DNA of 7,010 nucleotides from Deinococcus radiodurans R1 = ATCC 13939 = DSM 20539 (GTDB lineage Bacteria; Deinococcota; Deinococci; Deinococcales; Deinococcaceae): the NCBI RefSeq assembly GCF_000008565.1, contig NC_001264.1, positions 405,339-412,348 of the forward strand. The letters run 5' to 3'. The position numbers and the translations under genes were made by a program. Below, in pieces: positions 1,956 through 7,010 of the stretch (position 1 is its first letter; the number at the start of each line of letters is the position of its first letter). The notes under the pieces are model-generated. The model saw nothing but the letters and a program-made list of their open reading frames with translations. It made no database searches and was not told the origin of the DNA.

Positions 1956-2857
1956 TCAGCGGTGCTGGTTGCGGCTGTCCTCGGGGGTGCGGTTGTCCTC
2001 CTGATCGGGGAATTCGTCGCCGCGCACCCGGTAGTAGCGCCGCAGCCACTGCCCCAGCCCGCTCAGGTCGGGAAACAGGGTCCGCTCGGTGATGTTCGCC
2101 TGATCGAGCCGGTCGCGCACTTCCCACTTCAGCTCGGCGGGCAGCAGCACACGCCGGGCGGCGCCGTCGTATTGGCCCAGCCACGTTTCTAGGTCGTCCT
2201 CGGGGTTGGACAGCATGGAAAACAGCGCCGACTGCTGCACGATGCGCTGGTCGAGCGAAGGTGGCTCCAGAAACATCAGGAAAGGGCGCCCGCTTTCACG
2301 CTCCATGCGTTCGAGCCAGTGGATGTCGGCGTCGAAGCTCAGGCCCTGAAGCCTCTCCCCCGCGCTGAACGTCGCCAGCATGTCGGTGGTAAACACACTG
2401 CTGCCCTAAACACACTGCTGCCCTCATGCCGCAGCAGGTGCGAGAGCGGCCCCGGCAGCGCGGCGTTGGTCGTCGCCATGTCAAGCATCCAGATCACGCC
2501 GTCTTTGTCGTAGTCGCGCTCCTCGGCGGTGGCAAAGTGCAGCGCGACAAGCGGCGAATAGCTCCAGTCGAGCAGCCGGGTCGGCAACCCGTGGTGCTGC
2601 CCGAGCGCCAGCCAGTACCACAGCACATTCTCGGTCTGCACGTTCGCCTGCGTGTACTTGCGAAACGCGCGTACCAGATGCCGCTCGATATCGCGCGTTT
2701 CCCCGGCGAGGCGCTGAAGCGAGGTCGTCAACCGGGCAGCGCGGCCCTGGCCCCGAAACACGTAGGGCGAGCGAAAACGCCGCAGCTCCGCGTTCCAGGA
2801 ATTCTGGTTGAGCACCTCAAGCAATTCGAGCCAGCTGGCAACCCGAATGTCTTCCAC
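1956..2857 (-). pseudogene. FRG-domain protein gene, frameshifted by a 17-bp tandem duplication
   Basis: There are two consecutive - strand ORFs in different frames. The N-terminal fragment is 2857->2339 (GTG start, 172 aa) and the C-terminal fragment is 2396->1956 (146 aa). The N-terminal fragment has RSPYVFRGQGRA and LALGQHHGLPTRLLDWSYSPLVALHFA. The C-terminal fragment has PPSLDQRIVQQSALFS. Together these are the conserved blocks of the Pfam FRG domain family. Removing one 17-nt repeat copy joins them as ...HEGSSVF|TTDMLATF..., giving 294 codons. Confidence 0.8.
2390..2424. repeat. Perfect tandem duplication of a 17-bp unit (AAACACACTGCTGCCCT x2)
   Basis: Read directly from the sequence: 2391-2407 is identical to 2408-2424. 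One extra T of microhomology (2390, 2407, 2424) makes the duplicated tract 35 nt. Confidence 0.95.
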
Positions 2858-4050: not shown

Positions 4051-5218
4051 CGGCACTCTCGCGCAGAGGGGCCGGGGCCGCGCTCTGCTGGGTCTGAACG
4101 GCGCTTTCCATCGCCGCCTGCATCTCATTCCAGGTGCGGTCCCACGACAGCCCAGCGAGGTAGGCGTCGGCCCGCTGCTGGCGCTCGGTGGCCTGCGCGG
4201 TGCCGGCTTCGTCCAGTGCTGCCGCACAGGCGGCTTCGAAGGCGTCTACCCCGTCCGCCACGCGCACCATCTCTCCTTCCCCGTAGGGCCGGATCACGTC
4301 ACGAATGCCGGTCGACACCACCGGCACGCCCGCCGCCAGATATTCGGGCGTCTTGGTCGGGCTGATGAACTCGGTGGACGGATTGAGCGCAAAGGGCAGC
4401 AGCGCCACGTCCCAGTGGGCGAGGTACTGCGGCAACTCGGCATAGGTCTTCTGCCCCAGGTAATGCAGGTTGGGCGCCTGCGGCAGCTCGGCGGGATCAA
4501 TCTTAACCACCGGCCCCAGCAGCACGATCTGCCATTCGGGGCGGCGGCGAGCAAGTTCACCGATCAGGGCGGTATCGAAGCGCTCGTCGATCACACCGTA
4601 AAAGCCGAGACGCGGACGCGGCAGCTCACGCTGGTCCGCTGGATCTGCTAGATCTTGCCGCGCCTGTGCGAAGTGCTCGACTTCCACACTGGAGGGAAAA
4701 GGATACACATTGCCGTGTTGCAGGCACTTGGCCTCGTACAGACGGTGCCCGCCGGTGAAGACCACGCCGGCCTGCTCAAACAGTTGCTGCTCGCGTTCAC
4801 GCAGTTCGGGAGGAGCGCCCCTAAAGTTGGCAAGTTCGTCCATGCAGTCATAGACCGTCAGGCGCGGAGTGAGGCCCGCCGCCACCGGCAGCTCCATCGG
4901 CGTATAGACCCACAGGTCGTAGGTGTCCAGGCCTTCGCTCTGTACCAGTTGCGTGAGCAGCCGCGCGGTGCGGGCCTGGGATTCTGCTGGGCTGTGCCCA
5001 GACTCGACGTGGGGCGTGCAGACCGTCACGCCGCTGGCATCTGTCACCATTTCCAGTCTGTCGGCGTCCTCACCAAACACCGGCTCTTCAATAAAAAACA
5101 CCCGGCGGGTGCGAGCGGCGCGGGTCATCAAATGTTGCGGCCTCTGAAAAACAAAGTTCCAGCGGAGATGCGAGAGCACCAGCAAAGCCGGAGCCTGGGT
5201 TGAGCATGAAGCGACCAC
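4043..5218 (-). CDS. GT-B fold glycosyltransferase (GT4/TuaH-like family), about 391 aa
   Basis: Stop TGA at 4045-4043. The N-terminal block LLVLSHLRWNFVFQRPQHL and the C-terminal block EFISPTKTPEYLAAGVPVVSTG are typical of TuaH-like family-1/4 glycosyltransferases. The preferred start is GTG at 5218-5216, which is preceded by GGAAGGAGG (AGGAGG is the complement of 5225-5230) with a 6-nt spacer. The longest ORF starts at ATG 5290 but has only GGAAG directly abutting the ATG. Confidence 0.85.
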
Positions 5219-5427
5219 AACGGGCCTCCTTCCATCGTGAGGGCGAAATTGTTCAGGTGGGGGGCAAAGTGGACGGAGAGCGTGGCTCATCTTCCAGTCA
5301 GGAGCTTAGTGCAAGCGCTGAAATGAGAAGGTGGGATATGTGAGAAATAAAGCACTTTGATGCTCAGATGGGAAAGAGACAAAGAAAATATTGACCTTAA
5401 CTGGCCCAATGTCATTTAGAAATCCAA

Positions 5428-5447
5428 TTCCACAAAGTGCCACAGGC
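5428..5447 (+). repeat. Iteron-like repeat copy 1 (TTCCACAAAGTGCCACAGGC)
   Basis: Exact 20-mer shared with copy 2. It contains two CCACA pentamers 10 bp apart (5430-5434 and 5440-5444). Confidence 0.85.
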
Positions 5448-5542
5448 AGGCAGGAATACTAGGAAAAGAGCGTTTTTGTAAACGATTGAACCCTAGATAA
5501 GCGTCACTGACTGCTGCCACATCTACGTGGAGGGCAAGAATT

Positions 5543-5562
5543 TTCCACAAAGTGCCACAGGC
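5543..5562 (+). repeat. Iteron-like repeat copy 2 (TTCCACAAAGTGCCACAGGC)
   Basis: Identical to copy 1 and starts exactly 115 bp after it. Together with the two preceding T residues it reads TTTTCCACA (5541-5549), one mismatch from the canonical DnaA box TTATCCACA. Confidence 0.85.
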
Positions 5563-5657
5563 GAGGACTAGGCAAGACAATCCAGGTGGAGCTCGGCGTC
5601 AAATTCAGACCTAAAAACCGTGAAGCTCGCCGCCCCACAGTTTTGAGCGAGCAGGAA

Positions 5658-5677
5658 CTCCACAAAGTGCCGCAGGC
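5658..5677 (+). repeat. Iteron-like repeat copy 3 (CTCCACAAAGTGCCGCAGGC, 18/20)
   Basis: Starts exactly 115 bp after copy 2 and has two substitutions. It shares the extra 3' bases AG with copy 1 and ends 3 nt before the Rep-like gene stop codon (5681-5683). Confidence 0.8.
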
Positions 5678-5680
5678 AGC

Positions 5681-7010
5681 TCAGGCCTGTTCCCAGGCTT
5701 GAATTTGTGCCTGAGCGGCTGCCGTTTCCTTGTTAAGTAGCCCGATGAGGTCCAGACTGCTCACCCGTTCCGCAACATAGAGCGCAGCGGCGCGGTCCCG
5801 CAGTTCACGGCGCTCCGCCGTATCGTCGTACTGGCCGAGCAAGATCACATGCGCCGAGCGGGCTTTGCGGGGAACAGTACTGGTTTCCGAGTCGCCTTCT
5901 TCGCTCGTCTCCTGAGTGGGCTTAGCTTGAGCACGGGCTTCGTCGGTGGTCTTTTCAGCCACGGTCAGCAGCGTGTCGTACTTGTCCGGCGATTCCAGAA
6001 TGTCGCTGAGCATCCCAGCGCGGTTACGAATCTTGGAGCGGTAGTCAGTCTGCAACAGGGCTTCTAAGACGCTCACAGCCCTCTGGACGGCCTCCGAGCC
6101 ATATGCCTGGGCCAGAGTGAGGGCTCGCCCCCCGCTGACCCCGTAGCGGGCCAGGACGGCGATGGCCTCCGGGTCGACTGCCGCGCTTTTGGTGCTGGCA
6201 AAGGTGTAGTGCACCATGCGCGTTTTGCCTCGCCCCCGGTATTCCACCTCACGCAGAAAACCTATGGCGATCAATTCCTCGTGCGCTGGCTTGAGCGCCC
6301 GCATGACTGTATCGAGACGCATCTCGTGCATCCCCAGATGGGTCGCCCAGGTGTTGAGCGGCACAGCGAAGGCCAGCACCGGCTCCTGGCCGACCTGATC
6401 CCGCTGAAAAGACAGCGTGCGGAACAGATTGCGGGTCAGAGGCTGACTCAGTCGCGCCAGCATCTCAAAATCGAGCGGCAAAATGTGTCCGGCCCGGATA
6501 TTGCTGATCAGGCTGTCGTCAAGCCGGATAGCGAGAAGTGTCTGGGCACGCCACTGCCCGGCATTGGTCACATCCGCCGTATTGTCTTCAGCCCCCAGGC
6601 GGACAATCAAACTGAAGCTTACGCTCCGCCACCGGTGGCGGCTGCCGTCATACCAGCTGTCGGTCACGTCGTATGCGGTGTGTTGCAATCGCCGCAACGA
6701 AGCTTGCAGATTGCGATAAGCACGGGCACTGGGCGTAATCCCGCTGAGCTGCAAAAGTTCGCGGGTCGTCAGACGAACGGTGTCATCCTGCGGCATCCCC
6801 TGCAACACCACAGCGTTGACGAGTCCAAGGAGAACATCGTTGTCCACCCCATGAGGAACCAACGCGTTACGAGGCGCAGTGCAGCGCACGCTGACGCCTC
6901 CAATGGCATCGAAGGCAATGTGCCGGGCCCATTCGTAGAGCTCGGTGCGGTTGGGAGCGAGCACCAGGTTCAGCCGTGCCAGATTTGGCTCGTCGTGCCT
7001 GAGTGCCAGC
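5681..7010 (-). CDS. Replication initiator protein A (RPA/RepA)-like plasmid or secondary-replicon initiator. The 5' end is probably off window.
   Basis: Stop TGA at 5683-5681. The frame stays open beyond the GTG at 6964 to the window edge (LALRHDEPNLARLNL|VLAPNRTELYEW...). The pattern matches the RPA family as I recall it: an NLARL-type N-terminus, HGVDNDVLLGLVNAVVLQG, TTRELLQLSGITPSARAYRNLQASLRRLQHTAY, PLDFEMLARLSQPLTRNLFRTLSF, and a winged-helix-like EELIAIGFLREVEYRGRGKTRMVHYTF. A further C-terminal module contains KIRNRAGMLSDIL. The call is by recollection of family motifs, not by a search. Confidence 0.65.
   Translation of the reverse strand, partial: LALRHDEPNLARLNLVLAPNRTELYEWARHIAFDAIGGVSVRCTAPRNALVPHGVDNDVLLGLVNAVVLQGMPQDDTVRLTTRELLQLSGITPSARAYRNLQASLRRLQHTAYDVTDSWYDGSRHRWRSVSFSLIVRLGAEDNTADVTNAGQWRAQTLLAIRLDDSLISNIRAGHILPLDFEMLARLSQPLTRNLFRTLSFQRDQVGQEPVLAFAVPLNTWATHLGMHEMRLDTVMRALKPAHEELIAIGFLREVEYRGRGKTRMVHYTFASTKSAAVDPEAIAVLARYGVSGGRALTLAQAYGSEAVQRAVSVLEALLQTDYRSKIRNRAGMLSDILESPDKYDTLLTVAEKTTDEARAQAKPTQETSEEGDSETSTVPRKARSAHVILLGQYDDTAERRELRDRAAALYVAERVSSLDLIGLLNKETAAAQAQIQAWEQA

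Follow-up and report, generated by a model that had tools for sequence, protein, structure and literature searches.

Toward the right end of the window, as we call the whole stretch of 7,010 nucleotides of Deinococcus radiodurans R1 DNA analyzed here, a glycosyltransferase gene (- strand) is followed by a gap holding three copies of a short repeat (the trio), then by repA (- strand) and, beyond the window, by an intergenic region, parA (+ strand), and parB (+ strand). The window forms the end of D. radiodurans chromosome II. Window position x corresponds to x + 2801 in the D. radiodurans chromosome II (chrII) locus, L001. The features of the window that matter here are the following.

5129 to 5680, no strand: intergenic region from the start of the glycosyltransferase gene to the repA stop; moderately AT-rich, holds the trio, lowest GC in a 40-bp window 32.5%
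5343 to 5378, + strand: conserved block AAATAAAGCACTTTGATGCTCAGATGGGAAAGAGA, 60-80 nt before iteron 1; to its left, similarity with D. wulumuqiensis ends
5426 to 5449, + strand: distal iteron 1 (AATTCCACAAAGTGCCACAGGCAG), equal to the cisII consensus (PMC7671480); 24/25 positions kept in D. wulumuqiensis, flanks at random level
5541 to 5564, + strand: distal iteron 2 (TTTTCCACAAAGTGCCACAGGCGA), 23/25 positions kept in D. wulumuqiensis; its 5' end is one mismatch from a DnaA box
5613 to 5644, - strand: 13-bp hairpin with a U run after it, read on the repA strand and placed between iterons 3 and 2, from a minimum-free-energy fold
5656 to 5679, + strand: distal iteron 3 (AACTCCACAAAGTGCCGCAGGCAG), the GCCGCAGG variant
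5681 to 7010, - strand: repA (DR_A0369 in strain R1), RPA-family replication initiator by Pfam (PF10134, E 1e-18) and PGAP annotation

An earlier reading made from the letters of the window (the sequence-only reading) described the sequence correctly throughout. The gene it took for an RPA-like initiator matches the Pfam RPA family and is annotated as 'replication initiator protein A', with its first 14 nt lying beyond the window end. The 20-mer TCCACAAAGTGCCRCAGGC is found at 5429, 5544, and 5659, start-to-start distances being 115 and 115 bp, and the same two distances hold for the 24-nt family to which the copies belong. Copy 3 agrees at 18/20 positions (T>C at position 1, A>G at position 15), and 3 nt separate its end from the repA stop codon. 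A pair of CCACA pentamers 11 nt apart occurs in each copy, the second one in copy 3 reading CCGCA, and the lone CCACA pentamers are present at 5517-5521 and 5635-5639. Resemblance to the DnaA box is a property of copy 2 alone, where TTTTCCACA is within one mismatch of TTATCCACA. The gap is AT-rich as described, with 41-49% GC over 5200-5600 against 60-66% in the flanks. Such a recurrence is not expected by chance: allowing three mismatches, the 19-mer core is matched three times in the window, compared with 0.00 expected from 200 shuffles.

The spacers between the copies are unrelated, as the sequence-only reading had it, a gapless comparison giving 20/93 identities where shuffles average 23.7. 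Because this identity is at random level, a 115-bp tandem repeat, decayed or not, was rejected, and Tandem Repeats Finder made no call in the trio region. A CRISPR-like array of short repeats and unique spacers was rejected as well: there are only three copies, the spacers are ~95 nt long, and the same repeat is dense beside repA. A scan of the window against Rfam, with E up to 1, gave no match.

Replicon-wide counts were made on the chrII record of isolate DRR11 (NZ_OV024759.1, 412,465 bp), to which the window is 100% identical. At three mismatches or fewer, the 18-mer is found 15 times on the whole of chrII, comprising an origin array of 11 copies, the three copies of the trio, and one in a prophage. 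The rep region accounts for 14/15, and all 14 are on the + strand, flanking repA. The possibility that the 20-mer is a dispersed intergenic repeat of the Deinococcus SNR/SRE type, which the sequence-only reading had itself raised against an iteron, therefore fails on chrII, since the copies are confined to the rep region but for one; short-query BLAST likewise gave no match in the other D. radiodurans records of the plasmid collection.

The prophage copy, AATTCCACcAAGTGCCACAGGC at 377855-377872, has one mismatch (21/22 when flanks are included) and is placed right at the start of gene M7777_RS15780, with phage terminase, capsid, and tail genes nearby; ~7e-4 chance hits like it are expected by our estimate. 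Lone exact iterons were also seen on other contigs of same-iteron species (L113 3204 and L118 4938, from D. aquatilis and D. oregonensis, and NZ_CP097150.1 from QL22), inside what appears to be a conserved tyrosine-recombinase/integrase gene, where they read LWHFVE, and further lone copies occur in L015, L069, and L074. The lone copies on other contigs might be remote RepA sites or a coincidence of coding conservation. In the gap itself, cross-species similarity of the small ORFs is limited to the same LWHFVE, a peptide encoded by the iteron.

The 11 further copies are located at L001 10003-10314 (window-equivalent 7202-7513), between repA and parA. They lie ~200-500 bp past the right window end and ~1.5 kb from the trio, are spaced by 22/32/33 bp (2 or 3 helical turns), and share the strand of the trio. 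Between them and the repA start codon is a stretch with 17.5% GC in 40-bp windows. The array is the published cisII element, which the only study found on these repeats places at R1 coordinates 99-544 and describes as '11 iterons of 18 bp' with the consensus T(G)CCACAAAGTGCCA(G)CAGG (Maurya & Misra, 2020; PMC7671480). Against this consensus the trio scores 18/18, 18/18, and 17/18, the variant of copy 3 being one that the consensus permits. The trio and cisII thus share the repeat, the replicon, the strand, and the orientation, and the claim that the 20-mers are iterons of the adjacent Rep replicon is supported by their identity with the published iterons. They differ in arrangement, since cisII is a dense array upstream of parAB while the trio sits beyond repA, at the opposite end of the R1 numbering. 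The available part of the cisII study makes no mention of three copies beyond repA (PMC7671480). The start of the R1 numbering falls between repA and the array, which may account for the two not having been linked. The 'hypothetical protein' M7777_RS15355 (151 aa, no Pfam match; L001 9835-10290), which overlaps the array, is probably a spurious ORF made by the repeats.

On a plasmid that does not otherwise replicate, cisII alone gives maintenance at ~6.9 copies in D. radiodurans, and deletion of cisII lowers chrII from ~6 to ~1.5 copies (PMC7671480). The 11-iteron array with its unwinding element is therefore the experimentally supported origin of chrII. Autonomous replication has been reported for a fragment that lacks the trio, and the proposal that the trio marks the origin gives way to a dense array and a 17.5%-GC element on the other side of repA (PMC7671480).

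Comparison with relatives shows what has been conserved at the trio. Deinococcus sp. PESE-13 and two metagenome contigs have intergenic DNA 96% identical to that of D. radiodurans and keep both the 115/115 spacing and the 1543 bp to the array. D. wulumuqiensis, with a RepA 93% identical, likewise carries three copies 3' of repA; the last of them lies directly against the stop codon and has the A>G variant of D. radiodurans at the same position. Of the two spacings there, one is 112 bp in both strains and the other is 144 or 143 bp, depending on the strain. In a segment-wise alignment of the two species, the iterons are 92-96% identical and neither spacer rises above shuffles (z 0.6 and 0.0). 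The 120 nt to the left of copy 1 align with a z of 3.8; they contain the block at 5343-5378, which includes GCACTTTG, the iteron core in inverted orientation, occurs once on chrII, and keeps its distance to iteron 1 within 1 nt between the two species. On the left, the conserved rep module ends at this block. To its left, the neighboring gene is unrelated, encoding a glycosyltransferase in D. radiodurans and a hemin ABC transporter in D. wulumuqiensis. Because the iterons were kept while the spacers were randomized and the left neighbor changed, the three sites travel with the repA module and look selected. In the close relatives L146, L147, and L148, all ~96% identical, the origin array numbers 11, 6, or 13 copies (13 with a 122-bp gap) and the trio is invariant; the differences in copy number could be real plasticity or assembly collapse.

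The geometry fares less well. All copies on one face of the helix, locked in phase by a spacing of exactly 115 bp, was part of the sequence-only reading, and exact 115/115 spacing is found in D. radiodurans and its relatives with 96% identical intergenic DNA. Since the spacing differs in D. wulumuqiensis, the phase lock is not a conserved property. With 10.5 bp per turn a distance of 115 bp is in phase, with 11 bp it is not, and for the D. wulumuqiensis spacings the reverse applies, so that no single helical repeat fits the sites of both species and consistent phasing was discarded.

Further afield, the trio is absent. Seven replicons with a RepA 64-70% identical carry the identical iteron (QL22, D. 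aquatilis, SL84, a Deinococcus MAG, and three metagenome contigs), and none of them has a copy 3' of repA; upstream arrays are present in all seven, two being cut by a contig end. The D. radiodurans megaplasmid has repA, a 17.5%-GC element, eight iterons of its own sequence, and parAB in the same layout, and again no distal iteron copies. In six more distant RPA-family replicons, each replicon's own iteron forms a dense array on just one side of repA. Since neither the seven same-iteron relatives nor the megaplasmid has it, the trio is not a required part of the replicon design; it is a feature derived in the lineage of D. radiodurans and D. wulumuqiensis.

Such a lineage-specific distribution is also what one would see if the trio were a functionless leftover, formed when part of the iteron array was duplicated across repA and then split by insertions. 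The extended flanks of the trio (GGCAGG, GGCGAGG) do resemble particular units of the origin, and the mini-replicon without the trio shows no copy-number effect (PMC7671480). Neutral relics should decay at the same rate as the DNA around them, however, and here the sites, including the private A>G of copy 3, are nearly unchanged next to randomized spacers. We regard a relic as unlikely.

The comparison also bears on whether the trio, together with the adjacent AT-rich DNA, might still be an origin, either as part of the chrII origin or as a weak secondary or back-up origin fired by RepA. Three iterons beside the least GC-rich DNA of the window, one of them with a near-DnaA box, would suit this role. 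Moreover, cells without cisII keep chrII at ~1.5 copies, so something else can sustain the chromosome, and the 500-bp homology arms used suggest that the trio survives the deletion (PMC7671480). A back-up origin, if real, would explain this persistence. However, origins of this family have closely spaced iterons at multiples of ~11 bp (22/23/32/33 bp in the RPA-family arrays), while the sites of the trio lie 112-144 bp apart at variable distances. The AT-rich patch is mild and not conserved, its minimum rising to 40% GC in D. wulumuqiensis, compared with 17.5-20% (40-bp windows) at the conserved unwinding elements of chrII, the megaplasmid, and D. wulumuqiensis, which lie solely on the origin side. 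The published sufficiency of cisII for plasmid maintenance points the same way (PMC7671480). The GC-skew analysis of the whole replicon that the sequence-only reading had proposed is uninformative on the origin, the cumulative curve being noisy, its extremes falling at 64 kb and 178 kb. Taken together, an origin at the trio seems quite unlikely.

If the trio is not an origin, the question becomes which protein it serves. In strain R1, DR_A0369 is listed as a 'hypothetical protein'. An AlphaFold model of RepA (pLDDT 71) consists of two winged-helix-like units, and its sole significant PDB matches are domains 2-3 of RctB (E 1e-8), the initiator of Vibrio cholerae chromosome 2. RctB uses regulatory iterons beyond the minimal origin (PMC6090056). 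According to the cisII study, no known initiator is encoded on chrII, and sequence searches turned up no homologue of RctB or RepC there (PMC7671480). By domain match and predicted fold, DR_A0369 is instead an overlooked RPA-family RepA with an RctB-like model.

Each of the RPA-family replicons examined has its own iteron beside repA. The iteron differs whenever RepA has strongly diverged and is identical where RepA is at least 64% identical. Within one cell, the chrII iteron is not that of the megaplasmid, DnaA being common to both. The identical iteron is also kept in two of the replicons with a RepA 64-70% identical (L004 and L140) with no parAB annotated or called across the flanks that were fetched. 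Because the iteron co-varies with RepA, persists without parAB, and differs between replicons sharing DnaA, its specificity appears to follow RepA and not DnaA or ParB, and RepA would be its natural ligand. The published gel shifts report DnaA and ParB2 and not RepA as binders of the repeat (PMC7671480), and this weakens our main reading.

The gel shifts also raise the possibility that the repeats are centromere-like sites for ParB2 and the trio a second partition site, cisII having been published as 'parS-like'. In vitro, ParB2 binds cisII fragments with a Kd of ~0.4 uM and needs at least three repeats (PMC7671480), and the trio has exactly three. Cooperativity of the kind seen on dense repeats is unlikely here, though, because the sites are 115 bp apart. 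A parS would be an inverted-repeat site that co-occurs with parAB, and the iteron is a direct, non-palindromic repeat that stands beside repA in the two replicons without parAB in the fetched flanks; the published ParB2 binding counts the other way (PMC7671480). Furthermore, the related Thermus plasmid pTT27 uses a palindromic parS. A second partition site is, in our judgment, rather improbable.

A better centromere candidate is in fact present nearby. Directly after parB in D. radiodurans lies the 18-bp perfect palindrome GTTCTTACCGGTAAGAAC (L001 12128-12145), and in D. wulumuqiensis it occurs on both sides of parAB (L002 6975-6992 and 8671-8688). It is thus conserved beside parAB in the two species and missing from the parAB-less relatives, and a copy with one mismatch lies at 36636 of the chrII record, 157 kb away. 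From this distribution, GTTCTTACCGGTAAGAAC is a candidate parS of chrII distinct from the iterons, paralleled by the palindromic parSm inside parB of Thermus pTT27. The searchable literature yielded no mention of the palindrome. As a side note, one extra lone iteron copy of pTT27 also lies inside parB.

The immediate surroundings of the trio raise a further possibility, in which RepA bound there would act on transcription or on the fork, as a roadblock insulating the downstream operon or as a polar barrier to a leftward fork. All copies face one way, iteron 3 has the repA stop codon on one side and a terminator-like hairpin on the other, and iteron 1 directly adjoins a sigma-70-like site (5415 to 5387, - strand). 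The hairpin is a possible repA terminator on weak evidence: the scan for promoters and terminators, which found one promoter-like site, did not call it, it has no evident conservation in D. wulumuqiensis, and RNA structure in the repA 3' region is not significant (z -1.84). The promoter-like site lacks conservation, an apparently conserved promoter beside iteron 1 having been dropped because the distances differ by ~14 nt between the species. Conservation of the trio between species does not extend to the downstream operon, and no skew asymmetry points to unidirectional replication. We therefore consider a roadblock or barrier very unlikely.

With the origin role filled by the dense array, and with a layout of the incA/incC type discussed below, we rate as most likely, at somewhat better than an even chance, that the trio is an auxiliary RepA-binding locus outside the origin that acts by titration, by pairing with the origin, or by both. 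The trio consists of iterons of origin sequence, in origin orientation and linked to their cognate rep gene, placed outside the minimal origin and across repA, and the contrast between its iterons and its spacers is that of sites kept by selection. RepA (DR_A0369) would recognize the direct repeat of chrII, the trio being outlying copies of it. The trio could then damp initiation by titrating RepA, and RepA could pair it with the origin iterons, either by looping over repA in cis or by handcuffing sister copies in trans. Copy control through looping or handcuffing, offered as an alternative in the sequence-only reading, is hence the reading best supported, with the qualification that we infer both the binding of RepA to the trio and its negative effect. 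A strong cis-acting brake has left no sign in the published copy numbers, where the mini-replicon pNOKcisII, which lacks the trio, is present at 6.86 copies and chrII at 5.95 (PMC7671480). That comparison is a weak one, as chrII was there to supply RepA and the trio in trans.

The layout has well-known counterparts. In P1 (incC-repA-incA) and in F, origin iterons are followed by the rep gene and by extra iterons of the same sequence on its far side, so that a position downstream of rep, which the sequence-only reading had found unusual, is shared with P1 incA and F incC. These extra iterons are dispensable for initiation, and their 9 and 5 tightly packed repeats, respectively, have a proven effect on copy number and incompatibility. 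The trio has the same layout, but it is made up of three single sites 112-144 bp apart; that it is small next to P1 incA, three sites against nine, speaks against our reading. The auxiliary clusters reportedly go back to work by Abeles in 1984, Chattoraj and co-workers, and Das & Chattoraj in 2004.

Vibrio cholerae chromosome 2 offers a second likeness, as its ori2-inc region has initiator sites beyond the minimal origin that act by titration and handcuffing (PMC6090056, PMC3401445). Both are secondary chromosomes of plasmid ancestry, and the best structural match of RepA is to the central domains of RctB. Unlike Vibrio chromosome 2, no 39-mer-type sites, methylation sites, or crtS equivalent were identified here, and RepA is shorter than RctB, the match being confined to those central domains. 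Isolated iterons that communicate with a main array through the initiator are found at the R6K alpha/beta origins and in the upstream iteron of RK2 oriV. The distant sites of R6K are alternative origins, and we liken the trio to R6K and RK2 only as isolated distant iterons.

D. radiodurans chrII is a model secondary chromosome whose replication control is poorly understood, and the sole study found interprets the iterons as sites for DnaA and ParB and denies a replicon-specific initiator (PMC7671480). The window instead presents a classical initiator-plus-iteron replicon, with RepA, a selected three-site iteron locus, and probably a separate palindromic centromere. By itself, the trio is an expected feature of iteron replicons, and the RctB-like RepA and the candidate parS are more useful by-products. 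If the trio does control copy number, it would give a simple genetic handle on chrII ploidy, a trait linked to radioresistance, and it would extend control of the incA and ori2-inc type to the Deinococcus-Thermus group.

Two observations unrelated to the trio may be recorded. At window 2390-2423, a perfect 17-bp tandem duplication (TAAACACACTGCTGCCC twice) breaks an FRG-domain gene into two annotated ORFs, and deleting one copy in silico restores a single FRG-domain reading frame of 294 aa. A hint that isolate DRR11 is an engineered laboratory strain is that its chrII carries an aadA1 streptomycin/spectinomycin resistance gene (99% identity) at 259842-260852 of NZ_OV024759.1.
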